DNA of 64,000 nucleotides from Leptolyngbyaceae cyanobacterium (GTDB lineage: Bacteria > Cyanobacteriota > Cyanobacteriia > Phormidesmidales > Phormidesmidaceae). A program made the position numbers and the translations under genes. Below are positions 6,600 through 49,408 of the stretch, piece after piece; the first letter of the stretch is position 1, and every line of letters starts with the position of its first letter. The DNA is taken from positions 1-64,000 of the forward strand of contig JBHJHA010000058.1 of NCBI GenBank assembly GCA_050331235.1, read 5' to 3'. The notes under the pieces were generated by a model that saw only the letters and a program-made list of their open reading frames with translations, was not told the DNA's origin and did no database searches.

Positions 6600-6705
6600 C
6601 AATTCTCTGTAATCGCGCTACAGATTTGCAGATCCCCCGCTGCCGCTGCCCCCTTGAAAAAGGGGCTTTGAAAAATCTATATGTAGTTGTGATTCGCAGA
6701 GATAG
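6600..6705. repeat. Dispersed ~106-bp MITE-like repeat, copy 1
   Basis: About 90% identical to the reverse complement of 22992-23097; imperfect terminal inverted repeats; central CCCCTTGAAAAAGGGG hairpin. Confidence 0.85.
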
Positions 6706-6830
6706 GATACCTGGTCGCAACTCCTTGATAGAACGACAACCCGTTCTCATCAACGGTAGCGTTCATCTCTCTAGTTCACTAAAAACCCAAACTTTCCACT
6801 GCTACAGCTCAGCTGGCTAGAAAATCACCA

Positions 6831-22918: not shown

Positions 22919-22991
22919 CCCAGGTTCCTCAGGTCCATCGTGGCTCACGACTGAATTACGTGTCTCTTAACCCCAAACCCCGTCTCCTATA

Positions 22992-23097
22992 CTATTTCTG
23001 CGAATCACGACTACACATAGATTCTTCAAAGTCCCTTTTTCAAGGGGGCAGCGACAGCGGGGGCTCTTCAAATCTGTAACGCTATTACAGAGAATTG
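22992..23097. repeat. Dispersed ~106-bp MITE-like repeat, copy 2 (inverted)
   Basis: Reverse complement aligns to 6600-6705. Confidence 0.85.
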
Positions 23098-31667: not shown

Positions 31668-31751
31668 CAAACCAGCCTAGCGAAGGATGCTGTATGGGGT
31701 TTTTTGCATAACCCCCCGAAAAGGTATATTCCACAATGAGATGCCTAAGTC

Positions 31752-32317
31752 TCAATCTGCCGATTGCACGACCTTCGTCCCATCCAGATAGCGATACACA
31801 CTAGCCTTCGAGAGTTTGTAATCCTGCATCAAGGTTTTGATGAGCACTCCCTGCGCTCGCTTCTGTCGCAGCTCCAAACACTGTTGCTCAGTCAAATGCT
31901 TATCTCGACCCAGCCTAACGCCACGGGCTTTAGCATTTTGGATGCCATCCATTTGGCGTTCAGCCCGGATTTGGTTTCAAACTGGGCAATGGCTCCCAGC
32001 ATATTGAAGAGTAGCCGTCCGGTCGCATCGCCGGTGTGAATGTTCTGGTCCAGCACTTGGAGATTGACCTGCTTTTGTTCCAACTGCTCAGCTAACTGAC
32101 AGAGATGAAGCGTGGAGCGTGCCAGCCGGTCTAAGCGCGTCACCACCAATGTATCGCCTTCCCTAATGTATTCGAGGCAGGCTTTCAGCCGAGGTCGCTT
32201 ATGGGAAGAGCCACTCCGCTTCTCCTGAAAGATCTTGTCACAATGCTTCAGTTTATCGAGTTGCACATCGAGACTTTGTCCTACAGAGCTGACCCGCGCA
32301 TAGCCGACGACAGCCAT
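31752..32317 (-). pseudogene. tnpR: Serine resolvase of Tn A, frameshifted near 31972
   Basis: VGYARVSS, VTRLDRLAR, AQFET; continues in another frame as (E)IRAERQMDGI..HTH SKASVYRY. Confidence 0.88.
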
Positions 32318-32319
32318 GA

Positions 32320-32430
32320 TCGCCCCCAAAGGTTTCAATAAGCCTAAGACTTTGTGAGAATCAAGTAATGAGACATGATTTGAGACACTAGTATGAGTAT
32401 GTCTCAAAAGGTCTACTTTCTGAGACTATC
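32320..32430. other. Putative res site of Tn A
   Basis: Repeated TGAGAC/GTCTCA inverted half-sites between the divergent tnpR and tnpA. Confidence 0.55.
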
Positions 32431-32468
32431 GTAAACGACGAAACGTCCCAGCGCGATCCTCCATTTCT

Positions 32469-35400
32469 ATGGCAAAGCAGATAGCAGCCCCGACTCAAAA
32501 ACGTCTGCACATCCTAGGGGATGACGAGATCGCCGACCCCTATGGACTCCCTCACTTCACCTCGGAGGAGCAAAGCGAGTACTTCGCACTATCACTGAGG
32601 GAAGCTATGGCCATCGAGCAGCTGCATAGCAGCTGCATAGCATTAAATCTCGGCTCTATGCCATTCTGCAACTGGGCTACTTCAAGGCCCGCCATCTCTT
32701 TTTTGTCTTCAGCTTTGAAAGGGTGGCAGCGGATGCCCACTATCTCCAGGAGCGCTACTTCCCCACGTTCCAGCTAACTGCGTTTGAGCCGACGAAGGTC
32801 ACGCGCCTGAAGCACCAGCGCATCATTCTTGAACTCTGCCATTACCGTATCGGCGCTGAGCCAGAGCGTCAAGCACTGAGACGCAAAGCCGAACAGGCCG
32901 CGAGGGTTTGCGGAAAACCCATCTACATCTTTCGCGAGCTGATGCATTACCTCGAAGAGGAGCGTATTGTTGCGCCTGGATATAGCTTGATGCAGGATAT
33001 CGTGGGTCAGGCCATTGCCGATGAGCAAGACCGATTGGTTGCCGTGATGCAACGGCGTCTGACACCGTCTGAGACAAAAGCCTTAAATCGGCTGATAGAA
33101 GACGTACCCGGACTGTACGAAATCACCCAGCTGAAACGAGAACCCAAAGATTTCAGCCTCGGTGAGGTGAAGCGTGAGATTCGTCGCAGCGAGCAGATTC
33201 AGTCGCTCTATCACCTGGCCCAGACGCTGTTGCCTGCGCTGAAGATTTCTGGTGAAAGTATGAAGTACTATGCGTCACTGGTGACCTACTACTCCGTCTT
33301 CCGGCTCAAGCAGTTGGCTCAGGGCACGGTACATGTGTATCTTCTGTGCTTTGTTTACCACCGCTACCAACGGGCACACGACAATCTCATCAACAGCCTG
33401 ATATATAACGTCAGACGGTATGTTGAAGCGAGCAAGGTAGCGGCTAAAGAACAGGTCTATGAGTACCGGATTGAGGGTAACCAAAACCTACAAAAAGCCG
33501 GTCAGATTCTCAAGCTGTTTACGGACGACACCATTGTCGAAACTACCCCCTTTCAAGAAGTTCAGACAAAAGCCTTTGAGATCCTAGAGCGTCAGAAGTT
33601 GACCGTCCTCGCTGAGCACATTGCCACCCAAGCTAGCTTCGATGAGACGGCTTTTCAGTGGGAGTACATAGACACTTTGGCACGGCAGTTCAAGTGCAAT
33701 CTACGGCCTATCCTACAAGCGATTGAGTTTGCCAGCGCCTCGGGGCATGTCCCTCTGCTAAAAGCGCTTCAGTTCTTGAAAGCCGCAGCTCAAAAAGGAC
33801 GATCCCTGAATCAATATCGGCCAGACTCGTTTCCCACCCAGTTCATTCCAGACGCAACCAAACGCTATCTCTACGCCTCGGCGGAAGCCGGTGGTCATCT
33901 ACTACCAGACCGCTACGAGTTCCTGGCCTACCGCCTGCTGCGCAACGGTTTGGAATCGGGCGACATTTTCTGTCGCGACAGCGTTCGCTTCCGCAGTTTT
34001 GAGGACGACCTGCTCAGCGAGCAGCAGTGGCAAGCCAAGACGGAGCTGATTACAGTAACCGGTCTGACAATACTCAAGCAACCGATTCAAGAGCATTTGG
34101 CTGCGCTCGAACAGCAGCTAGAATCACGGCTGGCTCAGGTGAATCAGCGCCTGAATGCTGGTGAGAATCCACATTTTGAGACCAAAAAGCGAGGTTCAAC
34201 CATCCGGTGGACGCTTCAGTCACCAGGCATTCGCGAGTCGATCAACCATCCGATGTTCAGTGCGCTGAAGCACGTCACCTCAGCAGCGTTCTGCATTTCG
34301 TCAATCAGCACTGTCAGTTTAGCGAGGCCTTTGAACACCACTTGGGACGTTACGTCAAACAGAAATCAGAGGACAGCGTGCTGATCGCCTGCCTGATTGC
34401 CTGGGGCACCAATATGGGACTGGGCCGTATGGCCGAGACCTTGGATATCAACTATCACGCCCTGGCAAACGCATCTGACAACTTTCTCCGTCCCGAGACG
34501 CTGAGAAAGGCCAACGATCGCGTCAGCAATGCCATGGCTGAGCTACCCATTTTTCGGCACTACGATATTGGCGGAGCCCTTCACTCCAGCAGTGACGGGC
34601 AAAAGTTCGAAAGCCAGATTCAGACCATCAATGCTCGTCATTCGCCCAAGTATTTTGGCTTGAAAAAGGGCATCGTTTCCTACACCCTGCTGGCCAACCA
34701 TGTGCCGGTCAATGCCAGAATCATCGGCGCGAATGAGCACGAGAGCCATTATGTCTTTGACCTGCTGTTCAACAACACTACAGAGGTACAGCCGACGATT
34801 CATTCCACGGATACCCATGGCACCAATGAGGTCAATTTTGCCATCTTGCACCTATTCGGCTATCAGTTCGCCCCGCGCTACCGGGATATTCATGACAAGG
34901 TCAGTCATGCGCTCTATGGATTCCAACACCCCAGTCAATATGAGGATGTCCTGCTCAAGCCGATTCGCAAGATCAATACCCCACTCATCATGGACGAGTG
35001 GGACAACATCCAGCGCATCATGGTGTCATTGGCCCTGAAGACGACCACTCAAAGCATCATTGTCAGCAAGCTGAGTGCCTATGCTCGCAGAAATAAGACC
35101 CGGCGGGCGTTGTGGGAGTACGACAACATCCTCAAAAGCCTCTATCTTCTGGACTATGTCGATTCGGTTCCCCTGCGTCAGAATGTCCAACGAGCCCTGA
35201 ACCGGGGCGAAAGCTATCATCAATTGCGCCGAGCCGTTTCCTACGCCAACTTCGGCAAGTTTCGCTTTAAAACTGAATACGAGCAACAGATATGGGGGGA
35301 TTGCGCTCGCCTGCTGACTAACTGCATCATCTATTACAACGCCTCTATCCTGTCCGACCTGATGACTCACAGCGATAGCTGTGGTGACGTGGCCAGGGTA

Positions 35401-35535
35401 GCCCTACTCAGCCAGGTGTCGCCAGTCGCGTGGCAGCACATCAATTTTTATGGTCGCTATGAGTTCAATAAGCAGCCTGAACCCATCGATATAGAAGCGA
35501 TTCTTCAACAGTTGATACAGCTGAGGATTGAGTAA
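32469..35535 (+). pseudogene. tnpA: Tn3-family transposase of Tn A, with two frameshifts
   Basis: ILQLGYFKA restored by removing an 11-bp duplication (32620-32641); 1-nt loss near 34277; SSDGQKF, STDTHG, LNRGESYH motifs. Confidence 0.92.
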
Positions 35536-35591
35536 GACTCACTCGTCTGATTGTGGAATATACCTTTTCGAGGGGTTATGCAAAAAACCCC

Positions 35592-36289
35592 TAGATGAGT
35601 TCAAGCGGCATAAAAACGCCCTGCTACTCATTGATGAGTGGACCATTATCGGAGCCACCACATTTCGATTCAACGAGCATCTCAAGCCGTTTATTGATGA
35701 TGTGTGCTCGACTATCACCACGCTATCCAGCCGGGGGCTACAGGCAGATCAAGCCGTATGGTTAATTGCCCCCCATTGCCGACTAGATTTCCTTGAAAAG
35801 TCAGCTAAGGCTCTGAAGCTTTGCAAGCTCTGTTTAGTCGCTGCTAACCCTGAGCGACCGTTCGATGTGGATGGCAATCGCATTGGATTTGATAGTGAGT
35901 TATTCGACCAAGTAAAGAACAACTGGAAAGACCTAACAGCGCCCCCAAAAGGTATTGATTCGCTCGACTCAGAACGGATTGCCTTTATCAATGGTCAATG
36001 GTTACCGCTGGGTTCCATCGAAGTTACGGTAACCAACTCGGAACCTGAGGGCGTAACCACCGTAACCAACTGCCACAGCAGCGATACAGCGCTTATCTAT
36101 ACCCGCTTATCGGAGGTGTGTAACTTGACGGTAACCGAGGTTACAGGGGCTTTATCTGCCCTTTCTCAGGGCCTAACTAAGACTCACATTATCAAAAACA
36201 TTTGGGGCTATACCGGGCGTAATTATGCCGACTATGCCGAACGATTTGACCAATTACAGCAACTTACTGAAGTGAATCAAGATGTCTAA
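35592..36289 (+). pseudogene. 5'-truncated P-loop ATPase-like gene with a C-terminal HTH-like region
   Basis: Walker-B-like LLLIDEW just after the Tn A IR; the ORF-track start lies inside the transposon end, so the true 5' end is lost. Confidence 0.5.
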
Positions 36290-37025
36290 GAACTCCCAAA
36301 ACAACTCCAACTCATTCGACAGAAACTTTGCTACTGGCATTCCTAGTAATGATGATATTTCGCGGTTGTTTTCTGCCCATCGCCGCTATGCCAAAAGCTA
36401 TAAGGAAAATCAGCGCAAGATGCGCATGTTCAAGTTTGCTAAGCGGATAGCTTGGGTGCTGTTTGCTGCCGATGTCTGGTTTAGTTTGCTGGGGATTCGG
36501 GCCTTTAGCGGTTCCCTCGAATTTGCCCTTTTTACAGCGGTGTTCGTAGGGGCTGGCCAGTGGGTCGTCAGTGAGTCGCTGCTGTCTAAATCGTTTGGCT
36601 CACTCATGAAGATAGACGCCGACAGCGACGGGGAAATCACCCTGGCTGAGTGGATGCGTTGGGGCATTCACTTATCAGCCCTGATCGTGGTCTACGGCCT
36701 TGATATTGCCACCAACTTGGCTGCCATTAATGGAGAGGTGTTGGGGACATTGCCCTTTACGATCGCCGGTGATACGGCTGCCAGTAGTGTGCCGATATGG
36801 GCTGCTTGGGTGGTATCCCTCATCATTTGCGGCATTCTCTGCTTTGCGGATGAGTGGATTCATTCAATCAGTGATTCCCGATTGGCAGAACTGGAGAGCG
36901 AGCAACCTGCCCTCAAAGAACGCGCCGCTGTCATCGAAGCCAAGTTGGCGGAAGCGGGGGCCTTCGGTGAAACCATCCTGACTAAGGCCACAGAGCGGGG
37001 GATGCAGCGTGGCCAAGCCTACTAA
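36282..37025 (+). CDS. Hypothetical membrane protein with an EF-hand-like loop and a coiled coil
   Basis: About 4 TM segments, DADSDGEITLAE, overlaps the upstream stop. Confidence 0.7.
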   Translation: MSKNSQNNSNSFDRNFATGIPSNDDISRLFSAHRRYAKSYKENQRKMRMFKFAKRIAWVLFAADVWFSLLGIRAFSGSLEFALFTAVFVGAGQWVVSESLLSKSFGSLMKIDADSDGEITLAEWMRWGIHLSALIVVYGLDIATNLAAINGEVLGTLPFTIAGDTAASSVPIWAAWVVSLIICGILCFADEWIHSISDSRLAELESEQPALKERAAVIEAKLAEAGAFGETILTKATERGMQRGQAY

Positions 37026-37203
37026 ACCCATCTTTCTCACCCAGCGCCGCTGGTATCACCGCGTCAAACCTCTGACATGGGTGCTGGTGGCGCTATTCAT
37101 TGCCGACATTGCCACCCCTGGCTATATGCGCTTTGACTTTCTGCTCTTTACGTTGGATGCGACCAATGCAGTCGAGTCATTCCACCATCACCCACATCCA
37201 TAG
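37009..37203 (+). CDS. Small hypothetical membrane protein
   Basis: GTG start overlapping the upstream gene, one TM segment. Confidence 0.4.
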   Translation: MAKPTKPIFLTQRRWYHRVKPLTWVLVALFIADIATPGYMRFDFLLFTLDATNAVESFHHHPHP

Positions 37204-38014
37204 AATTGGCTTGCCCTTGCTCGCTATCAGTCGAGAGCAAATGGTGCAGATCGCTTTAGCTGTTGCTGTCTCAGTACCGGCAGTGAACGCGATTATCGAC
37301 GGCTTGTTATCTCCCCTATTCCCTCAGCAGCAGGAACCGATACAGGCGATATCGAGCCATGCAGCCCCCTTTGAGCCGCTGGCAGTCTATGCCCCGCATT
37401 ACTACGATGAATCCCCACTTGGTAGTTATGACCTAACGCTGGTGGACCCGGTAACTGATAGCGAAGCGGTAGCTGTGCCTAGTCCCTGCAATGGCACGGT
37501 AAGCACTACTGGAGCCGATGGCGGTTATGGCAACTATGCGGAGATTCTATGCGATGACGGCAACGCTATTTTTGTCGCTCATGCCTCTGAGGTCTGGGTA
37601 AACAAAGGTGACGCCCTTCGCAAGGGTCAAGCGTTCATGGTGCAGGGGTCGACCGGCAACAGTACGGGGCCTCACTTGCATGTAGAGATTACGCCGCCCG
37701 ATGGGGATAGAACTAATCGAGCTAAAACGGAGCCGGTGATGGAGCAAGCGATTGCCTTTTGGGAGGCGGGCGTATCGCCGGTTTCACCTGTTGCTAGCGC
37801 TGCTGGCGAGGCTTTAGATGATGCTACTTTGCGATGTGCTATCGGTGCCGCTGAAGGCACGATGAACGACGATTGCACGCCAAACCATAACTACGATGGC
37901 CATATTGATCCGGGTAATGGGGCGGCTAATCTTGGGGCCTTCAGCTACCAGCACGGTGCTAGCTCGCCACAGGAAGGCCCCAAAGTAGCGAAGCTGCGAT
38001 TTGGGGCAATTTAG
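37100..38014 (+). pseudogene. M23 peptidase-domain protein, C-terminally truncated by a TIR cassette
   Basis: GGYGN, AHA, GSTGNSTGPHLHVE; second domain AIGAAEGT..GHIDPGNG..FSYQHG runs into the IR at 37970; start uncertain. Confidence 0.72.
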
Positions 38015-39437
38015 TTCCTTTGTATTGTTTGACCCCTAATCCTATAACCAAGCCCAAATGGGCTCAGATTAATTGCCAACAGCTCGCAAACAAACCTTTC
38101 GGCTCAGATTAACTGCAAATAAGCTGAAAGGCTTGACTAACCCTCATTAACTCTGAAAGTGAATCTCGACGATGCCGAGGTTGCCAAAATCCGCGGTGAC
38201 GGTAACACCGAGATCAGTAGACAGTGGCCCAATGGCAGCTCCGGTGGTCACCCAGTCCCCAGCTTTAATCATCAGCCCACGCTGAGCCAGGTGATTCGCT
38301 AGCCAGGTTAATGAATTGAGGGGATTGCCCACGACATTGGCTCCGGTCTTGGTCGCAGCTAGTTGGCCATCGAACAGAGCACGGACAATGCAGGTGGACA
38401 GATCGAGCTGCTGCCAATTGGGCACGGCGGGGGCATACACAAAGCTGTAATTGCCCCCATGGTCGGCAATGAGACCGGGCGCACCACCCTGGGCTGGACC
38501 ATTGACGAGACGGCTACCCACTGGTTCGATAGCCGGGTGCAGGGTGTCTGCGGCGGCGGTAACGGCGGCAACGGAATAGGGTGCCCCCTGGGGCGGCAGG
38601 TCTTTGCCCATGCGAAATGCAAACTCAAACTCGAAGCCATACAGGGTGGCGCTGCTATCGGTGATAGTCTGGGGGGTCGGCCCCACTAATGACTCAAACA
38701 AAGGACCGGCGATAGGTTCGCTGACATGGGCCAGTTGCTGTAGGGGTTCGTTGGTCAGGGCCACCTTCCAACCCACTTGCGGGATGCCAATATCTTGCCG
38801 AAGCTGGTCCTGAACGGCGTAGGCTTCGTCAAGGGTTGCGGGAACCGCCGTTGGCGGGAGATGAATGCGCTGGTTTTTGCGTCTGGCGGTAATCAGGAGT
38901 TCAGCCGCTTGTTTGGTGTCAACCATGTTTCTTTCTCTGTGATTCCTTTATAGCCGAGTGAACCATAGAAGACAGCATGACCACTTCAAGGGCATGGAAC
39001 AGCAGGTGAAACTAGACCCCAGACCCAGCAGCCACACTGCACCGACCGATCCCTATACAAAGATCAAATGCTAGTAATGCTATCAAGAGAGTGTCCATTA
39101 AGCTAAAAGTCTTTACTAGTAGGGCATTCAACAATTTTTAGCCAAATCGACTAGCTGCGCTGCTCCGCAACTAGTCGATGACTGATGAGAGGTTAAAACA
39201 GCTTTTACCACAAGGATCACAGCCGATTTCTATTGATGATGTCTGGGTAGATGAGTCTCACCAAATTAGGGCGTTGCAGCTGTACTATCAGCTCACAACT
39301 TAGGCCATATTTAGGCCAAGCGCTTCCAGGGAACTGAGACTTATTTTAAGACTACCTTCCTCTATCAATGATGCTTTTATAGTTCAAAAGAACTAAATTG
39401 CCCCAAATCGCAGCTTCGCTACTTTAAGGCCTTCTTG
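37970..39437. mobile_element. Non-autonomous TIR cassette carrying a passenger gene
   Basis: 48-bp inverted repeats at 37970-38017 and 39390-39437 (45/48 match); no transposase inside. Confidence 0.8.
38147..38926 (-). CDS. 2-keto-4-pentenoate hydratase / FAH-family protein
   Basis: EAYAVQ, GWKVALT, EFEFAF, IADHG, GNPLNSLTWLAN, GDWVTTG. Confidence 0.85.
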   Translation of the reverse strand: MVDTKQAAELLITARRKNQRIHLPPTAVPATLDEAYAVQDQLRQDIGIPQVGWKVALTNEPLQQLAHVSEPIAGPLFESLVGPTPQTITDSSATLYGFEFEFAFRMGKDLPPQGAPYSVAAVTAAADTLHPAIEPVGSRLVNGPAQGGAPGLIADHGGNYSFVYAPAVPNWQQLDLSTCIVRALFDGQLAATKTGANVVGNPLNSLTWLANHLAQRGLMIKAGDWVTTGAAIGPLSTDLGVTVTADFGNLGIVEIHFQS

Positions 39438-39645
39438 GGACGACAATCCAAGGCACTGCCGCTCGGCCGCACGCGGATGTTACTCACGCTTCGAAGTGAG
39501 CTACGGCATCGGTTTTCGGGTAGTTTGCGCCGCCTCGTGGGATTTTTCGTAACCCTTTGCCCTCTTGCCCTTTGCGGCACAAAAATAGTTTATTTGTACT
39601 ATTAAGGGGTTTCGTACAGGATAAGCTCCTAAAACGATAATTTCT

Positions 39646-39685
39646 TAAAGATATAAAGGTATTAGATGTTTATGCGTTTAAGTTA
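39646..39685. repeat. Tandem 8-bp array (parS-like)
   Basis: TAAAGATA TAAAGGTA TTAGATGT TTATGCGT TTAAGTTA; related arrays at 40810 and 42040. Confidence 0.6.
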
Positions 39686-39716
39686 TAAGAGCCCTGAAGA
39701 GGTAAGCCCGCAGGGC

Positions 39717-40793
39717 TCAAGGGGCAGATTCTTCGTTGCCCTCGTGCGTTTGCAGATCGCGCACGGCAGCGTCTAGCTCCATCTCCAATTGTTCGGCGCT
39801 AGGCAGGCTGGTTTGCAGGTCGGGGGGCAGCTCGTCACGTAGCTTATAGGTCGAGACGCCGATCGGATTTTCCATCATGTCGAGGGCAAACTCGACGATG
39901 GTGCGCTTCTTCGACCGACAGAGCACAATGCCGATTGTGGGGTCGTCCCGCTCACCACACAGCAGATAGTTCACCGCCTTCACGTAGAAGTTCATTTTGC
40001 CTGCATATTCTGGCTTGAATTCGGTGGTCTTGAGGTCAATGACCACGTAGCGGTGGAGTTTGATGTGGTAGAACAGCAAATCAATAAAGAACTCATCGCC
40101 TTCGAGCTCCAGCCGGTACTGGCTGCCGACGAAGGCAAAGCCGACCCCGAGTTCCAACAAAAAGTCGCGAATGCGATCCACTAGGGCACGTTCGAGGTCG
40201 CGTTCCTGAGCGGCCTTGTCCAATGTGAGGAACTCAAAGTTGTAAGGGTCTTTGAGCAGTTGCCGTTGGAGGTCTGACTGTTCGGGCGGCAGGGTCTTCT
40301 CAAAGTTGGTGACTGCCCCTCCCTGCCGCCCGAACAGATGAGTTTCGATCTGCATCACCAGAATGTCTCGGCTCCAGCCATTTTCTAGAGCTTGCTGGCC
40401 ATACCAGAGCCGTTCTTCGGTGCTCTTGAGCTTTTCGAGTAGGGCGATGTTGTGCCGCCAGGGTAATTGTCCAACGCAGCGTTGGACAATTAGTTCATCG
40501 GGCCAGGCTTCGGCAAAGGCCCGCATATACATTAGATTCGAGCGAGAGAATCCCTTGATATCGGGAAACTCCCGTTTCAAATCCTGTGCTAGTCGTTGGA
40601 TGACCTTGGCGCCCCAATTTTCCTGGGCCTGCCGCTGCAAGATTTCGCGCCCAATTTGCCAATAGAGTTGAATCAGCTCTTGGTTGACAGCCAACGCTGC
40701 GCGTACTTGGGCCGACCGAATCCGTTGTTTCAGCCCATCTAACAGCGCGAAGTAATTTTCCTCTTCAGGGAATAGGGGACTATTGGTAGACAA
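39717..40793 (-). CDS. DUF1016 / YhcG PDDEXK nuclease-domain protein (cargo copy)
   Basis: AVNQELIQLYWQIG, GFSRSNL, LPWRHN, KDPYNFEFL, LELGVGFAFVGSQ, IDLLFYH, GKMNFY. Confidence 0.92.
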   Translation of the reverse strand: MSTNSPLFPEEENYFALLDGLKQRIRSAQVRAALAVNQELIQLYWQIGREILQRQAQENWGAKVIQRLAQDLKREFPDIKGFSRSNLMYMRAFAEAWPDELIVQRCVGQLPWRHNIALLEKLKSTEERLWYGQQALENGWSRDILVMQIETHLFGRQGGAVTNFEKTLPPEQSDLQRQLLKDPYNFEFLTLDKAAQERDLERALVDRIRDFLLELGVGFAFVGSQYRLELEGDEFFIDLLFYHIKLHRYVVIDLKTTEFKPEYAGKMNFYVKAVNYLLCGERDDPTIGIVLCRSKKRTIVEFALDMMENPIGVSTYKLRDELPPDLQTSLPSAEQLEMELDAAVRDLQTHEGNEESAP

Positions 40794-40849
40794 GGCCCAA
40801 CTCCTTGGCTAAAGGTATTAGACGTTTATATATTTAAGGTATATAGAAA

Positions 40850-41263
40850 TCAAAGATTTAAGGCTTCCTTGAGGTCCTCAATGTTGTGAATTGCTTCCCA
40901 GTCCAGGTCTTGGGCCTTGAGGAGATCGATGGCTGCGCCAATGAGGTGTTGTGGATAGACCCGCTCGTTGGGGGGCACAGCATATTCATTGTTGTCACGC
41001 ACCTGTTGGGCAGTGTCCTGTAGCCAGCGCTGCTGCTTCCGTTCAATCTTGATATTCACTGTTGTCAAGGTTTCTTTGCGACGGCGCTTGGCCTTCGTCT
41101 TAGGGGTAGCTTTCGTTGCGTCGGTGGGCGCTGCTGCCTCGGTCGGTGCTGGCGGTGGCGGCGTGGCTTCCTCCGCGACGGCGGTCTCCGTCTGCGCCGC
41201 TGGCTGTGAGACCCCCCCGAACGAACTCAAACTCAGATTTCCCATCCGTTTCTTCGTAGTCAT
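40850..41263 (-). CDS. Putative ParA partner / centromere-binding protein
   Basis: ATGA-coupled to parA; disordered N-terminus and a beta-helix-helix-like C-terminus (TTVNIKIER..). Confidence 0.6.
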   Translation of the reverse strand: MTTKKRMGNLSLSSFGGVSQPAAQTETAVAEEATPPPPAPTEAAAPTDATKATPKTKAKRRRKETLTTVNIKIERKQQRWLQDTAQQVRDNNEYAVPPNERVYPQHLIGAAIDLLKAQDLDWEAIHNIEDLKEALNL

Positions 41264-41979
41264 TGCAGTCCCCATACTTTCAAACATTCTTTGGCGAGTG
41301 AGCGATAGGCCGTCGCCCCGGAAGATTTGGCGTCGTAGTCAGCGACGGGCACCTGCTGAGCGATAGATTCAGCGATCGCAATGTTTTCGGGAATGAACGA
41401 ATGCAGCAAGCGATAGTCGAGATCTACAGAGCCGGCGATCAGCAGGTCATCGGCTTCCCGTGACAACACCAAGCGACTTTTGTACCGCGATCGCAAAACT
41501 TCGATGGGTACGTCGGGTCGCTCACCCCGGATCAGCCCAATCGCTTCCGAGATGCCTTTCAAGCTGGCAGGTTCACATAAGGTCGGCATAATGACGCGAT
41601 CGGCATTCAATACGGATTGTACTGATGGCAGCCCTAAGCTAGGTGGGCAGTCCATCAGACACACATCATAACCTCTTAGACCTTAAATGGATGGAGCGAT
41701 TAAATCTTTATCAGCTGATAATCTAAACATCCCAATGTCACCAGCGATGAGATGCAGCTTCTCGACGGAAGTGGTTAAGGGTTCACCGCTACCATCTAGC
41801 CAATCTAAAATGGTTGGCTCTGCACCATCGAGCCCCAACGAGAAGGAGATCGTTCGCTGCCCATCTAGATCAATAAGGACGGTTTCGTATCCAGCCCGCG
41901 CAATTTCAGCACCCAAGTTGAGGGCGGTTGTGCTTTTAGAGGTGCCACCTTTCAAATTCCAAACAGCGACTTTCAGCAT
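41260..41979 (-). pseudogene. parA: ParA-family ATPase with an internal in-frame TAA (41683-41685)
   Basis: NLKGGTSKSTT, IDLDGQ, DCPPSLG; the two ORF-track pieces are in the same frame (APSI*GLRGYDVCLMDCPP). Confidence 0.88.
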
Positions 41980-42275
41980 GGTGGTTCATTGTGAGGACAT
42001 AATGACTTTATGTCATTAACCTTCGTTCTGAATAACAGTTAAAGGTCTAATATGTTTATCTGATTAAATGTGCCAGTTGACGAAAATCGCTGGACTGAAT
42101 CTGGATTATTTGCTGATGAAAGGAACTGTGCCAGTTGGCTGAAGCCCTTGAAACCTCGTGACCAGTAAAAACGGGGTCAAAAAGCGCGATCGCCCCGGTT
42201 TGCCAAGCTTTCCTCCATATTTAACGGAGGGAGTAGTTGCCTTGTGTCGCAGCGCTTCCAGAAAGGGTTAACGCT

Positions 42276-42887
42276 TTAACGCCCTGCGGCATGAAAAATA
42301 GCGTCGGCGGTGAGCGACAAGGCGGGGAAGGTCATCGAGACGATGCGATCGCTGCTGCGAAACTGTCGTAGCTGATATTCACCCTTCTCTAGGCTGTAGA
42401 CCGAAATGGTCGGCGTTTTCGGCGAGCCAATATAGCGAGTTGCTCCAACTGCCAGGTAGTCAACAATCCAATATTCCAGGATGCCGAGCGCTTCATACTC
42501 AGCCAGCTTGTAGAGATAGTCGTCGCGCCAATTGGTTGAACTCACCTCTACGGCGAGCTGAATCGGCTCCTCCAGAGCCGCATATGCTTTCGGGTCAGAT
42601 GTCCAAACGGTTTTATCAATCACACTCACGTCCGGAGTCCGACCTTGCACCAAACCGTCATCGCGGCGAGTTTTGACGGAAGCAAATCGCGAGACTTTGT
42701 AATGGAGCTGATCGCGTCTGACTTCGTCGCGGAAGGCATCGTAGATAAAGTCGGCTACATCATCATGGGCGCGAGTTGCCATTAGCTGAACTTGTTCCCC
42801 GTTAACCAATTCATAGCGATTGCCATCTTCTGGCATCGCCTCCAGAAATTGCAGAAAGCTGAGTGGTGGAGCAAGCGCTTGAGTCAT
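42276..42887 (-). CDS. Uma2-family endonuclease
   Basis: RYELVNG, PDVSV, LAVEVSS, KLAEYEALGILEYWIVD. Confidence 0.92.
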   Translation of the reverse strand: MTQALAPPLSFLQFLEAMPEDGNRYELVNGEQVQLMATRAHDDVADFIYDAFRDEVRRDQLHYKVSRFASVKTRRDDGLVQGRTPDVSVIDKTVWTSDPKAYAALEEPIQLAVEVSSTNWRDDYLYKLAEYEALGILEYWIVDYLAVGATRYIGSPKTPTISVYSLEKGEYQLRQFRSSDRIVSMTFPALSLTADAIFHAAGR

Positions 42888-43028
42888 GATGACGATAGCC
42901 GCAGCTATATGACAGTAGTGGTATGAGGTACCTCTAGTTTACGGGGTTTGAGTAGTAATAGAACAGAAACCTACGCTAAGGCTGAAGTCCTTGCGTTACA
43001 GTCTTCCTGGGCCTTAAAGCGAGCAATA

Positions 43029-44237
43029 TCATTTAGGAATCATCTGTAGCTGGGCATTAATCTCACCAAGTTCAGCCTCCTCTGGGTCAAAGAATCCCCC
43101 AACCCATTCGAGCATCTCCTCATGTTCAGGATGCTCCACGTCTTGGATGGTCTCTAGGAACTCCTGATAGCCCCAAACCCCACCACAGTCTTCCGGTGGA
43201 CAGGCACGCTTGGCTTTGATGCAAACGGGATAGCTAACATCAGGCTCCGCTGGGAGAACCTTTTCAACCAGGACGTCATGCTCCCAGGAGTCTCCGAAGT
43301 CATACAGATAAGAGAACTTAAACTTTTCTCCTGGTACGAGGCGACTCAATTTGACCGCCTGTTCGTCACGTAAGTCCATCTCATCAAAGCCTAAGTCAGG
43401 CATGGGGACGCCATACTCAACGCCTTGAACATGGAAGGAATGGAGGTGTGAATTTGTCCACCCCATTGAGAGCTGAACCACCCAGTGCAACTGCCCTAGG
43501 GTGATATCACTGGGCACCTGTACCCGCCGCCAAATCGGTGGCCGGATGTCCTTGAGGGTGATTTTGAGTTGGTAGATTGATGGAGCTTTCTTTCGAGGAG
43601 CCATTTTAGAGCGCGGGGGATAAAAATCGGGGTGAGTTTCGCGGTGACGTTTCACAATCTCAGTAACTGTCGTCTTGCTGAGCTTCAAATGATGGGCAAC
43701 GGTTCGATAGGCCGTTCCCGCCTCCACCATCTGTATCACTTTTGGGGCCAGCGGGTCTGACTTAATCCGTTGGCCTGGTCGGCGGCCCAAAAGCTTTCCT
43801 CTAGCCTTCGCGGCGGCCAACCCTGAGCGGACTCGTTCGCTGACTAAATCGCGTTCAAACTCTGCCAGCGCTGCCATCAACTGGGCAATCAGACGGCCTT
43901 GCGGGGTCGTTAAGTCGAACTGTAGTCCGGTTTGGGCAATCAAGGAGACTTGCCAACTGTGTAAAGCTTGCAACGTTTGAATCAGGTCTAGAGTGCTGCG
44001 GCCCCATCGAGTCAGTTCGGTCACGAGGACGGCATCAATCTTCCGAGCTTGCGCCAAGGCCATCACCTGCTCTCGTTCAACTCGGGATGACCTTGTCCCT
44101 GGGGCGGTCTCCTTCCACACGCCAACCACCTGGAAATTGGCTTGGGTAGCGTAGTGCAATAAGTCCTGCTCTTGTCGGTCACAGGACTGATCCATGGTTG
44201 AGACCCGGCAATAAATGGCAATCCTTTTTTGTACCAA
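43029..44237 (-). CDS. Serine resolvase fused to a pRiA4b ORF-3-like domain
   Basis: AIYCRVST, ELTRWGRS, AEFERD; then IYQLKITL..PPIWRR..SHLHSF..YDFGDSWEH..CPPEDCGG. Confidence 0.88.
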   Translation of the reverse strand: MVQKRIAIYCRVSTMDQSCDRQEQDLLHYATQANFQVVGVWKETAPGTRSSRVEREQVMALAQARKIDAVLVTELTRWGRSTLDLIQTLQALHSWQVSLIAQTGLQFDLTTPQGRLIAQLMAALAEFERDLVSERVRSGLAAAKARGKLLGRRPGQRIKSDPLAPKVIQMVEAGTAYRTVAHHLKLSKTTVTEIVKRHRETHPDFYPPRSKMAPRKKAPSIYQLKITLKDIRPPIWRRVQVPSDITLGQLHWVVQLSMGWTNSHLHSFHVQGVEYGVPMPDLGFDEMDLRDEQAVKLSRLVPGEKFKFSYLYDFGDSWEHDVLVEKVLPAEPDVSYPVCIKAKRACPPEDCGGVWGYQEFLETIQDVEHPEHEEMLEWVGGFFDPEEAELGEINAQLQMIPK

Positions 44238-44292
44238 TTAAACCCTTCTGACTTTAGAGGGCTGAAACCCGCGATGTGTCGTACCGTTTTGG

Positions 44293-44324
44293 TGTACCAA
44301 TCAGACTATACTCTGACTGGTACA
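44293..44324. other. Putative res subsite of Tn B
   Basis: TGTACCAATCAGA-CTATAC-TCTGACTGGTACA palindrome between the divergent resolvase and tnpA. Confidence 0.55.
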
Positions 44325-44354
44325 AATTATGATGGGATTAGCTACCTCAGTCGC

Positions 44355-47300
44355 ATGCCTGTTCGTTTTCTGACGGAAGAGCAACAACAGCGCTATGGGT
44401 GCTATCTAGACACACCAACTGAGCTTCAGCTGGACCGATACTTTCATCTCGATGACGTAGACCGACAACTGATAGCTGCACGCCGGGGCGACCACAATCG
44501 GTTGGGGTTTGCCGTGCAGTTGGGAACTGTGCGTTTCTTGGGGACCTTCCTGGCCAATCCAATTGAGGTGCCGCCCAACGTCGTTGACTATTTAGCGCAG
44601 CAGCTAGAGGTCGCTAGTACGAGTAGCCTGCCAACTTATCTGGAGCGAGAGGAAACCCGCTGGGGACACACGGCGCTGATCAAGCGTCACTATGGCTACC
44701 AGGATTTTAGCGCTCAGCCAGCACACTGGCGATTTATTCGTTGGCTCTATGCTCGCGCCTGGGTAGGAACAGAAGGCCCCAGCGTTCTCTTTGATATTGC
44801 GACAACGCAGCTGCTGGAGCAGAAAATTTTACTCCCTGGCGTCAGCGTCTTGGAACGGTTGGTAGCGACTGTGAGGGAGCGGGTGTCACAGCGGGTATGG
44901 AAGGTCTTGTCACGTCTGCCGACAGCTGAGCAATGCCAGCGCCTGGACGCCATTCTCAAAGTGGATGAGGATGCTAGGCAAACGGTCCTTGATCAGCTCA
45001 GGCGCTCACCGACGCGCCATAGCGCTCCAGCGCTGGTGGCGGCACTTCATCGGTTAAAGCGGATACGGGCCATTGGCGTCAGCCATCTGGTGATGCCAAT
45101 GGTTCCGCCCAGTCGGTTGAAGGCGTTGTCACGAGCTGCATTCACCTCCCGCGCCCAGACTATTCAGCGGATGCCGAAAGCTCGGCGGATAGCGACGTTG
45201 TTAGCCTTTGCCCGTGATGTCGAAGCGACGGCCCAGGATGATGCGCTGACGGTTCTAGAGCTACTCACAAAAGAATTGTTGTCCAAATCAGCGAGTCAAG
45301 GAAGAAAGAAACGGCTGCGGACACTCAAAGATTTAGATGCGGCGGCGCTGACGTTGAGTACCGCCTGCGCCATTCTCATAGCGCCAGAGCAGGAAGTTAC
45401 TCAGCTGCGCGAGACAATCTTTGCTCAGGTTCCCCCAGAACAACTAGCAGCAGCGGTCGAGCCGGTGGAATCCATTGCCCGCCCACCAGATGACCAATAT
45501 TACCCTGAGATTTTGAGTCGCTGGCGCACCGTGCGGTTATTCCTGCCGACGCTGTTGAATACGATTGACTTTCAGGCAACCCAGGCAGGGCAGGACATTC
45601 TAGCGGCGGTAGCCTTTCTCAAATCGATTGAGGGCAAGCGTAAGCCTGTCATGACGGAGGCTCCTTTATCGATTGTCAGCAAAGGCTGGTGGCGTTGGGT
45701 ATGTCCAGCTCCAGGCGAAATTGATCGCCGTGCCTACACTTTCTGTGTGCTGGAACAGTTGATGAATGGGCTGCGCTGCCGGGACTTGTACGTGTCTCCG
45801 AGTGTGCAGTGGAGCAACCCACAGGAAAAATTGATTCAGGGCCGCGAGTGGGTGGCGGTGCGCAGCCAGGTCTGTCGCACGTTGAATCTTGCGCCGAAGC
45901 CTGATGAGAAATTAACGCAGCTAAAGCAGCAGCTCAATGATGCTTACCACCGGACGGCTCAGAATCTGCCCAACAATGATGCTGTACAAATTGTTGAGCA
46001 AGAGAACGGGCGACCAACCCTGACAATTAGCCCGCTAGAGAAGCTAGAAGAGTCTGAAAATTTGCGATCGCTCAGGGCGAAGGTGACGCCCCTGCTGCCT
46101 CGGGTAGATCTCCCGGAAGTACTGCTAGAGACTCACGAAAAAACAGGCTTTCTCGATGCTTTCTCTCATGCTCATGAGGAAGGTGCTCGCGCTGATAACC
46201 TCACCACTAGCCTCTGCGCTGTCCTGGTGGCGATGGCCTGTAACATTGGGCTCAGACCGTTGCAGCGTAAGGATACGCCTGCGTTAACGAAGCATCGTTT
46301 GGCTTGGGTGAAGCAGCACTACATTCGAGCTGAAACACTCGTTGAATCGAATGCTTGTTTGGTGAATGCACAGAAAAATGTTCCCATTGTTCAGGCTTGG
46401 GGTGGCGGTGAGGTCGCTTCTGCCGATGGTTTAAGGTTTGTCGTGCCAGTGAAAACATTAAATGCTGGCCCTAATCGCAAGTATTTCAGCAGCGCGGGGT
46501 ATTACCTACTACAACTTTGTCTCAGATTTGTTTGCTGGGTTTCACGGCCTAGTGGTGACCGGGACGCTGAGAGATTCGTTGGTCGTGCTGGTCGGCTTGC
46601 TGGAGCAGCGGACAGGGCTGAGGCCGCGCGAACTGATGACGGATACGGCAGGTTACAGCGATATCGTCTTTGGTCTGTTCTGGTTACTGGGCTATCAGTT
46701 CAGTCCGCGCCTGGCCGACACTGGTGAGGCCCGCTTCTGGCGACTCGACCCAAAGGCTGACTATGGTGTACTCGATGGGATAGCTCATCAGAAGGTGAAA
46801 GTGCATCTCATTGAAAACTCGTGGGACGACATGCTACGGGTAGCTGGGTCGCTCAAGTTCGGTAGGGTCAGCGCTTTGGAAATTATGCGCGTGCTACAGA
46901 AGGGCGGGAAGCCGTCTACGTTGGGCAAGGCCATTGGTGAGCTGGGCCGGGTGGCGAAGACATTGTATTTGTTGCACTACATCGATGATGAGGATTATCG
47001 GCGACGCATTCTTATCCAGCTCAATCGAGGGGAAGGGCGGCACAGTTTGGCCAGGGCGATCTGTCATGGCAACAAAGGGGAGATCCGGCAGCGCTATCGT
47101 GAGGGGCAGGAGGATCAACTCAATGCGCTGGGGCTGGTCACCAATGCTGTCATTCTCTGGAATACTCTGTACATGGATAGAGCCCTTGATCACCTCCGTG
47201 CTCAGGGCTTAGAGATCGATCCTGACGACATCGCTCGGTTGTCGCCGCTGGGACATATCCATATCAATATGCTCGGTCGTTATTACTTCGAGCTGGCTGA

Positions 47301-47367
47301 GGCACTCAAGGAGGGTGGGTTTAGGCCGCTGCGGAACCCTGATGACCCAAATGAGCCATTTTACTAG
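44355..47367 (+). pseudogene. tnpA: Tn3-family transposase of Tn B, frameshifted near 46490
   Basis: MPVRFL, NRLGFAVQLGTVRFLG, ASADGLRF; then RGITYYNF, MTDTAG, QLNRGEGRH in another frame. Confidence 0.92.
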
Positions 47368-47436
47368 GCTCGAAGCTAAGCGTGGCAACGGATGTAGCCT
47401 TAGCGCAGGTTTCTGTTCCGTTACTACTCAAACCCC

Positions 47437-47682
47437 TATCCTGTCCGACCTGATGACTCACAGCGATAGCTGTGGTGACGTGGCCAGGGTAGCCCTACTC
47501 AGCCAGGTGTCGCCAGTCGCGTGGCAGCACATCAATTTTTATGGTCGCTATGAGTTCAATAAGCAGCCTGAAACCATCGATATAGAAGCGATTCTTCAAC
47601 AGTTGATACAGCTGAGGATTGAGTAAGACTCACTCGTCTGATTGTGGAATATACCTTTTCGAGGGGTTATGCAAAAAACCCC
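47437..47682 (+). mobile_element. Second copy of the Tn A right end (246 bp)
   Basis: Near-identical to 35346-35591 (one substitution seen). Confidence 0.95.
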
Positions 47683-47693
47683 TGTATCGGATC

Positions 47694-47732
47694 CCGCCCC
47701 TCCTGTGGAAAACCAATGATCAATGCGGGTCT
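47694..47732. repeat. 39-bp direct repeat, right copy (partner at 31629-31667)
   Basis: Contains the stop codon of the DUF1016 gene. Confidence 0.92.
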
Positions 47733-48784
47733 TCTTCTTCACCCGGACTGGCCGCCATCTCTAGGGGAACAGCTTTGAGTTCTTTTTCTAACCGTTCGAC
47801 CGACGGGAGCTGCGTTTCTAAGGGAGCCGGGATTGTCCGATGCGTGGAAATCCCAATAGGCTTTTGCAAATCCCGTAGGGCATATTCAGCGATCGTTTTA
47901 TTTTTGGCTCGGCACAGAATTAAGCCAATCGTCGGGCCATCATCGGGATGCCGGAGCAAGTCGTCGATCGCCGATACGTAAAAATTCATGCGACCAGAAT
48001 ATTCCGGCTGAAAGTCTCCCATCTTTAAATCAATGACGACAAAGCACCGCAGCTTCAGGTGATAAAATAACAGATCTACATAAAAGTCTTCGCCACTTAC
48101 TTCTAAATGGTGCTGACTCCCTACGAAGGCAAAGCCAACACCCAGCTCCAACAAAAAGTCGCGAATGTGATCAACCAGCGCCTGCTGCACCTCTCGTTCC
48201 TGAGCATCTGCCGAGATCGTTAAAAAATCAAACGTGTAGGAATTTTTGACAAGATCCCTAGCCAAATCAGACTGGAGCTCAGGGAGCGTTTGCTCAAAAT
48301 TAGTAATCGCGTCACTTTTGTGTCGACTGTAAAGCTGCTGGTCAATCTGAGTCAGAAGGATATTGCGGCTCCAGCCGTGGGCGATCGCCTGCTGGGCGTA
48401 CCACAGTCTGGCTTCAGGGTCCTTGATCGCCTCCATCAAGCGAACATTATGCCCCCAGGGCAGGTTAGCCATCACCTCGTGCAACACCGCTTCATCCGGA
48501 TAGGTTTCGGCAAAGGCCCGCATGTAGTGCAGATTGCGCGGAGAAAAACCTTTCATGCCGGGAAACTCGCCGCGTAGGTCCTGGGCAATGCGCTCAATGA
48601 CCTTACTGCCCCAACCCTGTGCTGTCTGACGTTGTAAAATTGCTTGCCCAATCTGCCAGTAAAGCAGGACCAGCTCCCGATTGACCGCTAAAGCCGACCG
48701 AACTTGTGCCCGCCGAATATGATCTTTTAGCTGCGTAATCAGATGCTCATATTCAGGGGTCTGGGAAGGCAGCAAAGCAGACAT
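47720..48784 (-). CDS. DUF1016 / YhcG PDDEXK nuclease-domain protein (chromosomal copy)
   Basis: AVNRELVLLYWQIG, GFSPRNL, LPWGHN, LELGVGFAFVGSQ, VDLLFYH. Confidence 0.92.
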   Translation of the reverse strand: MSALLPSQTPEYEHLITQLKDHIRRAQVRSALAVNRELVLLYWQIGQAILQRQTAQGWGSKVIERIAQDLRGEFPGMKGFSPRNLHYMRAFAETYPDEAVLHEVMANLPWGHNVRLMEAIKDPEARLWYAQQAIAHGWSRNILLTQIDQQLYSRHKSDAITNFEQTLPELQSDLARDLVKNSYTFDFLTISADAQEREVQQALVDHIRDFLLELGVGFAFVGSQHHLEVSGEDFYVDLLFYHLKLRCFVVIDLKMGDFQPEYSGRMNFYVSAIDDLLRHPDDGPTIGLILCRAKNKTIAEYALRDLQKPIGISTHRTIPAPLETQLPSVERLEKELKAVPLEMAASPGEEEDPH

Positions 48785-48806: not shown

Positions 48807-48876
48807 GAATCTGCAACAGGCTGTTGCAAGATTCACATCGTACCGCCTCGAGATAAATGTGCAACGGGCTGTTGCA
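48807..48876. promoter_or_regulatory. Two TGCAAC-N5-GTTGCA palindromes upstream of the DUF1016 gene
   Basis: Cores at 48812-48828 and 48860-48876. Confidence 0.6.
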
Positions 48877-48931
48877 GCAATTGCAAATGGCTATACACCT
48901 ATCAAAATTTAGTATAAATGAATTATCTAGC

Positions 48932-49408
48932 TTAGGGAATTTTCCACAGATATAGTGTTGATTCTTCCTCAGAGTGCGGCAAACGCAGCATCTCATCGGG
49001 ATACCAGTCACCCATATCAAACTGGTGAGACACAATGCGAGTCCCTGCTCGCAATTGCTGCCACAGCTGTGGCAGCAGTCGCCTGTTGAGATGTGGCAAC
49101 AAATAGAGTGCAACTACCGTCGCCTCGGTAAACTGACTCTCAAACAAATTACCCTGTTGCAGAGAAATGAGGTGAGCAACGCCGGCCACTTTGGCTTGCT
49201 GCCGGGCTCGCTGTAGGCACACCGGGTCAATATCAATGCCCACACCACGGGTGCCCCACCGCTGCGCCGCGCGAATCAGCAATCGACCATCACCACAACC
49301 TAAATCGTAGAGTACGTCTTGTGCGCCCACCTGAGCCAGCTCAAGCATCGCCTCCACTGCATCGGGGGGCGTGGGAATGTAGGCAATATCAGGGCGATGA
49401 GTGACCAA
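48932..49408 (-). CDS. Class I SAM-dependent methyltransferase
   Basis: YIPTP, YDLGCGDGR, GIDID, RIVSHQF. Confidence 0.9.
   Translation of the reverse strand: MVTHRPDIAYIPTPPDAVEAMLELAQVGAQDVLYDLGCGDGRLLIRAAQRWGTRGVGIDIDPVCLQRARQQAKVAGVAHLISLQQGNLFESQFTEATVVALYLLPHLNRRLLPQLWQQLRAGTRIVSHQFDMGDWYPDEMLRLPHSEEESTLYLWKIP

Follow-up and report, generated by a model that had tools for sequence, protein, structure and literature searches.

Our analysis identified two copies of one palindrome, TGCAAC-N5-GTTGCA, directly in front of a YhcG/DUF1016 gene (copy 2) of the window, that is, the whole 64,000-nucleotide stretch of cyanobacterial DNA analyzed here, and this palindrome is the very site predicted for copy 2 from the residues of its own protein. 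A dimer of the YhcG protein very likely binds such palindromes, and, judging from sequence comparisons, the two upstream copies are probably the protein's own operators, through which copy 2 would repress its own transcription.

The window carries the only two YhcG/DUF1016 genes of the assembly (Table 1), both of which are full family members by profile. Copy 2 matches PF17761 (DUF1016_N, E 1.6e-45) and PF06250 (YhcG_C, E 5.2e-61), copy 1 matches the same two families (E 3.2e-47 and 5.7e-64), and the PADLOC candidate defence profile PDC-S02 is matched at E 9.6e-148. The C-terminal domain is predicted by both residues and fold to be a PD-(D/E)XK nuclease: among 99 proteins, D237 is invariant and D252 and K254 are conserved in at least 90%, and the predicted structure matches AdnA, NucS and other nucleases. 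Copy 2 is a resident gene, found in relatives in the same slot between a methyltransferase gene and a solute-binding-protein gene, and named relatives are Leptolyngbya- and Halomicronema-type cyanobacteria. Copy 1 is cargo of a composite Tn3-family element (31696-47682), bounded by inverted ends of 46 bp, which inserted directly behind copy 2, between it and the solute-binding-protein gene, and left a 5-bp target duplication. The transposition genes of this element are two transposase genes, each split over two frames, and a resolvase fusion, and its other cargo comprises a split parA, a small partner gene, a Uma2 nuclease and an M23 peptidase. The window also holds an inverted repeat pair (6600-6709 and 22988-23097; 110 bp, 90% identical) whose members lie 16 kb apart.

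Table 1. Positions in the window of the YhcG genes, their palindromes and neighboring features.
Feature	Position	Strand	Remarks
YhcG/DUF1016 copy 2	47720..48784	-	354 aa; DUF1016_N 19-154; PD-(D/E)XK domain 177-321
Gly111 codon of copy 2	48452..48454	-	Start of predicted helix 110-119; accompanies inner bases AAC
Decayed internal site of copy 2	48467..48483	-	Codons L-H-E-V-M-A; 2/6 arm pairs
Arg83 codon of copy 2	48536..48538	-	Start of predicted recognition helix 82-94; accompanies G at -7
Proximal palindrome GAATC-TGCAACAGGCTGTTGCA-AGATTC	48807-48834		Imperfect 14-1-14, left arm minus one T
Proximal perfect site TGCAAC-N5-GTTGCA	48812-48828		Within 48807-48834; 28-44 bp before ATG 48784; predicted copy 2 site
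Distal perfect site TGCAAC-N5-GTTGCA = TGCAACGGGCTGTTGCA	48860-48876		76-92 bp before ATG 48784
Possible -10 hexamer	48906-48911	-	Follows LexA-like box
LexA-box-like 14-mer	48911..48924		8/10 consensus positions; just upstream of the sites; tentative
Small methyltransferase gene	48932..49408	-	Upstream neighbor of copy 2, kept across the genus
YhcG/DUF1016 copy 1	39717..40793	-	358 aa; cargo of Tn3-bounded element; site predicted from Ser83/Arg111 differs
Internal site of copy 1, TCCAAC-N5-GTTGGA	40470..40486		Core of perfect 14-1-14 palindrome 40464-40492; codes IVQRCVGQL

A first-pass annotation of the window had reported both palindromes and their coding-strand readings, ILQQPVADSW and LLQQPVAHL. 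We confirmed the readings as well as the positions, which together span 28-92 bp upstream of the ATG of this minus-strand gene. The further claim that the upstream palindromes share the site of the other copy holds for the geometry and fails for the identity, since the upstream sites begin with TGC and the site in copy 1 with TCC; it is the internal site still carried by copy 2's own orthologues that the upstream sites match. The motif is far from common in the genome: T[GC]CAAC-N5-GTTG[GC]A has three matches in the 4,795,212 bases of the assembly, two upstream of copy 2 and one inside copy 1, all at YhcG/DUF1016 genes, and the same half-sites at other spacer lengths (0-12) give 0-2 matches each. 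The chance expectation for a given half-site, estimated from letter-permuted half-sites, is 0.41 perfect 6-5-6 palindromes per genome, or about 9e-6 per 100 bp.

The palindrome of copy 1 belongs to a family-wide pattern. Of 288 matches, representing 257 distinct loci, 239 full-length proteins remained after removal of partial or interrupted genes, and 163 of these 239 genes have a perfect 6+6 palindrome in the same codon positions; synonymous recoding that keeps the codon use of each gene would give 1.7. This 17-bp palindrome is formed by the codons of the linker that joins two helices of the N-terminal domain, and across the family arm pairing is high at offsets 2-11 and 13. A 16-bp variant with a four-base centre (6-4-6) and the linker VQQLLH occurs in Arg83 proteins of three loci (L172, L186 and L054); this spacing may be tolerated or read differently.

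The bases of the site are predicted by residues of the protein that carries it. When the site's own codons are left aside, the outer bases are best predicted by residues 82, 83 and 86, and the inner bases by residues 111 and 114. All 89 genes with Arg83 have G at position -7, and all 74 with another residue have a different base there (163/163 genes). On a tree built without residues 76-120, residue 83 and base -7 change 32 times each and all 22 independent pairs agree; on a tree of the N-terminal domain from which code and linker columns had been removed, the rule holds in 12 of 12 pairs. A held-out set of 67 additional loci, the majority from three other phyla, provided 37 new genes parsed by pattern, 30 of them with a perfect palindrome, and the residue-83 rule held in all 30 (11 with Arg, 19 with another residue). 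All tandem palindromes follow this rule as well, that is, the two or three in-frame copies found in lengthened linkers at L318, L322, L325, L326, L331, L336 and L365. Orphan sites adjoining the genes at L055 and L059 do not match the code of that gene.

For the inner bases, Gly111 goes with AAC (72/83), Phe111 with AGC (18/18), Tyr111 with AAG (16/16) and Lys111 with ACC (14/14). Arg111 is mixed, and a rule linking it to G at -2 was set aside as weak (9/13). Pair tests for residue 111 on the first tree gave p values of 0.008 (Phe/Trp) and 0.004 (Tyr); on the N-domain tree there were only 3, 4 and 1 pairs, too few for a test. Eight of eight combinations of residues 83 and 111 were found, with the predicted site the commonest in each. 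The codons of residues 83 and 111 flank the site, with that of 83 ahead of it, and each residue governs both arms, from which we infer that one crossover cannot yield the combinations.

Two other explanations of the covariation fall short. A protein-protein contact, with residue 83 touching residue 106, leaves unexplained both the left-arm base -7, which is a synonymous position, and the non-coding sites, which follow the code even with an altered linker peptide; among genes with a decayed site, Arg83 also accompanies Ser106 (17/64). The linker peptide as the setter of specificity was ruled out, as the upstream sites of copy 2 and its relatives stay TGCAAC where the linker has become LHEVMA, ILETLS, IADTLA or VDQVMA.

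Applied to the window, the code separates the two paralogues. Copy 1, with Ser83, Arg111 and Ile114, carries TCCAAC-G. Copy 2 has Arg83, Gly111 and Val114, which predict TGCAAC-A, and the upstream sites therefore fit copy 2 and not copy 1.

The upstream sites are a conserved property of the copy 2 clade (SH-aLRT 99 on a tree from which the site region was left out). At 20 of the 21 loci with at least 66% identity, one to three perfect TGCAAC-N5-GTTGCA sites lie within 260 bp upstream, with no perfect site of the four other half-sites examined. The exception is L011, in which Trp110 has also changed. A further clade member, L048, has no site in 232 bp upstream, so that 20 of 22 copy 2 orthologues carry perfect upstream sites. 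In most of the clade the distance from the proximal site to the ATG is about constant, the sequence between the sites is unconserved, and the number of sites varies by duplication and deletion. This conservation, together with the match to copy 2's own residues, favors the autoregulatory operator proposed in the first-pass annotation, as a prediction from sequence. At four loci of one group, g1 (L122-L125, from G087, G079, G063 and G043), an extra gene of 216 aa lies between the methyltransferase and YhcG genes and has its own upstream site or sites; its product has no Pfam or NCBIfam match and is unrelated to the g6 gene described below. In G087, 700 bp of repeat-rich DNA lie between two sites, and G043 has there one site with the outer flanks.

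The site had also been thought to occur either inside the gene or in its promoter. These are not alternatives, since 14 of the 20 genes with upstream sites have kept the internal site too and 15 genes of sister lineages have neither. Where copy 2 itself has the decayed site, close orthologues encode LQQVVA and have a perfect site, and the state of the internal site changes three times on the clade tree, that is, it decayed three times. The internal site decays and the peptide drifts once non-coding copies exist, which shows that the linker peptide is retained for the sake of the DNA that encodes it. Outside the clade, 141 genes with a perfect internal site had 250 bp of upstream sequence, and in none of them does this stretch contain the gene's own site with one mismatch or fewer; at two mismatches there are 8 such sites among the same genes versus 2.4 expected, and L233 has a perfect own site at -269.

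The predicted sites of copy 2 lie between the ATG and a LexA-like box with a possible -10 hexamer. A sigma-70 scan found no promoter in front of copy 2. The consensus of the cyanobacterial LexA box is of the AGTACWNWTGTACT type (PMC3091678), and the likeness scores 8-10 of 10 in 10 of 11 same-genus orthologues and 6-7 in the other 10 clade loci; scores of at least 8 are reached by 32 of 86 other cyanobacterial family genes and by 128 of 1000 random windows, and the genome's own recA and lexA score 8.

Structure prediction places the N-terminal domain near ParB and Noc. The model (pLDDT 94.5) has helices at residues 10-56, 61-73, 82-94, 98-103, 110-119, 123-136 and 140-148, and its Foldseek matches are mostly DNA-binding domains of Noc, ParB and Spo0J, including Noc 6y93_A (probability 0.99, target TM 0.72, E 0.34). 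Ranked by E, the first match is Raf1 (0.17), a cyanobacterial RuBisCO chaperone that appears among the structural matches beside ParB and Noc. With the full model, Spo0J is matched at Z 7.1 (rmsd 2.7 over 90 residues) and KorB at Z 6.6. ParB, Noc, Spo0J, KorB and SopB recur among the N-domain matches, at modest scores (Z 5.6-7.7, Foldseek E at least 0.3). Sequence-level likeness is weak: local hhalign against a ParB set in which 18 of the 30 loci had been picked by a motif gave a probability of 2% and E 0.024, with GFS aligned on GKS and LPWGH on LxMGH, global hhalign with ParB gave no match (probability 0.1%), and no sequence of a solved structure matched the family profile at E up to 1.

In ParB, four residues switch binding from parS to NBS, and R173 of the recognition helix and G201 of the helix after it are among them (PMC7383237). 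Gly111 aligns weakly with this specificity glycine, and the two specificity residues are 28 apart in both proteins (R173/G201 in ParB, R83/G111 in YhcG, with the register at 82-83 uncertain by one). Residues 83 and 111, identified independently of any structure, thus map to the base-reading positions of a solved relative, and the model suggests for the N-terminal domain a DNA-binding fold of the ParB/Noc type in which these two positions likewise set specificity. ParB-parS, Noc-NBS and YhcG would then share a helical DNA-binding fold, a palindromic site of 16-17 bp, and specificity set by the residue at the start of the recognition helix together with the Gly-His of the next helix. YhcG differs from ParB in its long N-terminal helix and its C-terminal PD-(D/E)XK domain; the N-terminal (CTP-binding) domain of ParB has no Pfam match in YhcG, in which residues 10-56 form a single helix in both models. 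Its site, moreover, is written in the codons between its two specificity positions, the family has many specificities instead of two, and copy 2 has no partition neighbors.

The codons of the helix, the site and codon 111 all lie within about 90 bp. In two sets of loci (L045/L047/L049/L050 and L161/L165/L169/L173) the proteins are 94-98% identical elsewhere and differ in three to four helix residues and in both arms of the site. Such joint differences between near-identical proteins suggest the exchange of a short specificity block, and many of the changes counted on the tree are therefore probably block transfers and not new origins. Paralogues residing in one genome seldom share a code: in 26 genomes with at least two listed paralogues, and with the best-scoring paralogues only, the same code was found in 4 of 60 pairs (16% expected, p 0.01) and the same half-site in 2 of 46 (11% expected, p 0.05, borderline). 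Tandem YhcG genes occur at L076, L083, L215, L254 and L280, with a different site in each gene.

According to the mechanism that we propose, each site would be occupied by a dimer, which in the leader would obstruct RNA polymerase; at the internal site repression could work by roadblock or looping. Autorepression would keep the nuclease at a low level, and different specificities would keep co-resident paralogues apart. The copy 2 clade gained non-coding leader copies of the site, after which the internal copy decayed on three occasions.

The sister group of the clade (g3, g6 and g10) has the same three residues as copy 2 and has kept the catalytic-type motif. In 12 g3 and 3 g6 genes the internal site has decayed with Arg83 and Gly111 retained, and these 15 genes have no match at up to two mismatches within the gene or in the 600 bp before it, which indicates that cis-repression is dispensable there. 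A perfect site is nevertheless present somewhere in 20 of 22 g3 genomes, and in all 12 examined for its location it lies inside a nucleoside hydrolase gene, in G034 at 260 kb from the YhcG gene. The site in this gene is restricted to genus g3: of 30 hydrolase loci, 26 could be parsed, and it is present in 6 of 6 unbiased g3 orthologues and in none of the 20 orthologues of other genera. Across nine genomes selected by the motif, seven successive codons are identical, compared with 12 of the other 84 comparable codons. Chance coding matches were dropped as an explanation in view of these frozen codons and of the split between g3 and other genera. The sequence in question is TGCAACA-N3-TGTTGCA, about 300 bp into the hydrolase gene and with synonymous positions frozen (L115-L121, L127, L128, L399-L404, L429-L431), and in G080 another perfect site lies at a distance of 33 bp.

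In g6 and g10 the distant site lies in the leader of a hypothetical gene that follows cpcT, as two sites in 3 of 3 g6 cases and as one site in the 3 of 3 g10 cases examined, and in g10 the internal site is intact alongside it. This gene stands between cpcT and a NUDIX-like gene, far from YhcG (L112-L114, L458, L459 and L465), and its product is probably secreted. A slot for gene swapping at this locus was ruled out, because the downstream genes of g6 and g10 are orthologous (50% identity). Two sites are kept 1.3 and 2.0 kb upstream in the genome G087, where leader and internal sites are gone. In G076 (97% complete) the YhcG gene is intact, there is no perfect site and the hydrolase gene is missing from the assembly, and G106 has a site and no YhcG gene that we could find. 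The distant sites of the sister lineages are not accounted for by cis-repression alone.

These sites give some weight to the main rival reading, in which the protein does bind the palindrome and the site serves mainly as an anchor or sink, required at some place in the genome, that holds or loads the nuclease, and not as a cis operator, the upstream copies being no more than the anchors of this clade. The sites in the hydrolase gene and at the cpcT locus are kept with the same code where g3 and g6 have lost the internal site, and the two distant sites of G087 without leader or internal copies would fit an anchor as well. We nonetheless regard it as unlikely, since the intact gene of G076 stands without a perfect site and the site of G106 without a gene, since distant sites would fit equally well with a protein turned regulator of other genes, and since the constant spacing between proximal site and ATG in the copy 2 clade suits an operator.

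It is also conceivable, and in our judgment improbable, that the palindromes are targets which YhcG nicks or cuts, promoting recombination by which copies multiply and cargo and specificity blocks are swapped. Changes in site number that fall between sites, such as the 700 bp of G087 against the single site of G043, can be explained by ordinary direct-repeat recombination. Other observations in its favor are the tandem sites in the linkers of distant genes, the block-like switches in near-identical proteins and the enrichment of DUF1016 genes beside programmed inversions (PMC9881135); against it, the g3 site is stable in a conserved enzyme gene and the g6/g10 site lies beside orthologous genes.

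Still less probable is a palindrome kept by hairpin function in DNA or RNA, or by template-switch mutation, with the upstream copies as relics that no protein reads. In its favor, the innermost pair on the coding strand is G-T 102 times and A-C 10 times, a terminator-like match covers 48860-48876, and the orphan sites of L173 and L228 are remnants of broken genes. Core mismatches, in contrast, show no wobble bias (G-T 7, A-C 6), the upstream sites hold one sequence without compensatory changes between random flanks, and a hairpin model does not predict the residue-to-base code.

It seems very improbable that a different regulator, or the copy 1 protein in trans, is what the sites serve: several genomes do have perfect matches away from DUF1016 genes, but reversed-pattern controls give some background matches too, the motif is confined to the two YhcG genes here, the residues of copy 1 predict TCCAAC-G, and G013 and G038 have a single perfect site per genome, which lies upstream of the YhcG gene.

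The suggestion that the variable peptide draws on the upstream copies as silent donor cassettes is largely refuted and retains next to no credibility, since over 32 upstream sites the 20 bases on each side are only 24% and 27% identical to the gene, the gene's reading frame is kept in 12 of the 32, and among the 50 closest proteins there is neither an upstream-type linker nor an allele in which an upstream cassette has replaced the intragenic segment; the family-like peptide readings, with the proximal site in frame and open through to the ATG at this locus, arise because the motif itself dictates them.

The operator reading has precedents in known systems. KorB-OB of plasmid RK2 is a ParB-fold protein that represses at palindromic operators, and the predicted role of YhcG resembles it in using a ParB-fold protein as repressor at palindromes; to our knowledge, KorB lacks a nuclease domain, and no part of its DNA-binding domain is encoded by its operator. 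Protein-binding palindromes inside coding sequence are known from lac O2 in lacZ and parS in Bacillus spo0J, where, as predicted for YhcG, a protein-binding palindrome doubles as coding sequence and works with promoter-near sites. The YhcG site differs from these in that it varies with the encoded protein, alters its peptide and can leave the gene. The controller (C) proteins of restriction-modification systems limit a nuclease through diversified palindromic operators, which also keep co-resident systems apart; YhcG would be controller and nuclease in one protein, with a different predicted fold and an in-gene operator.

Earlier work has described YhcG/DUF1016 as a predicted nuclease often found on mobile elements (PMC4316617) and DUF1016 as correlating with prophage number (10.1101/2024.04.30.591980). 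In 10.1101/2024.09.26.614923, a PDC-S02 member is among eight candidates set against T4, T5 and T7 and is not among the four protective ones, and the main text of 10.1101/2024.01.29.577857 names neither PDC-S02 nor YhcG nor DUF1016. Our literature search, which covered few subscription journals, found no published description of a YhcG palindrome, operator or code, and in the literature searched no binding site, code or regulation was found for PDC-S02.

YhcG/DUF1016 is widespread and a listed candidate defence gene. The residue-to-base code gives a predicted site for each member, which makes binding, regulation and cleavage directly testable. With an operator that lies between the two codons whose residues read it, a change of specificity need not pass through a broken intermediate, and such an operator offers a natural library of specificities of a predicted ParB fold. 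The distant sites of the sister lineages raise the question of action in trans. It is possible, if doubtful, that YhcG is a one-gene system in which the nuclease is restrained by its own palindrome somewhere in the genome and is freed when all sites are lost. If this were true, site and specificity would form one swappable block of 90 bp, with the site by default in the codons that separate the two DNA-reading helices, and the site may move to the gene's own leader, to the leader of another gene or into distant coding sequence. Destroying all sites would then switch the nuclease on, as in an addiction system or a sensor of genome damage.
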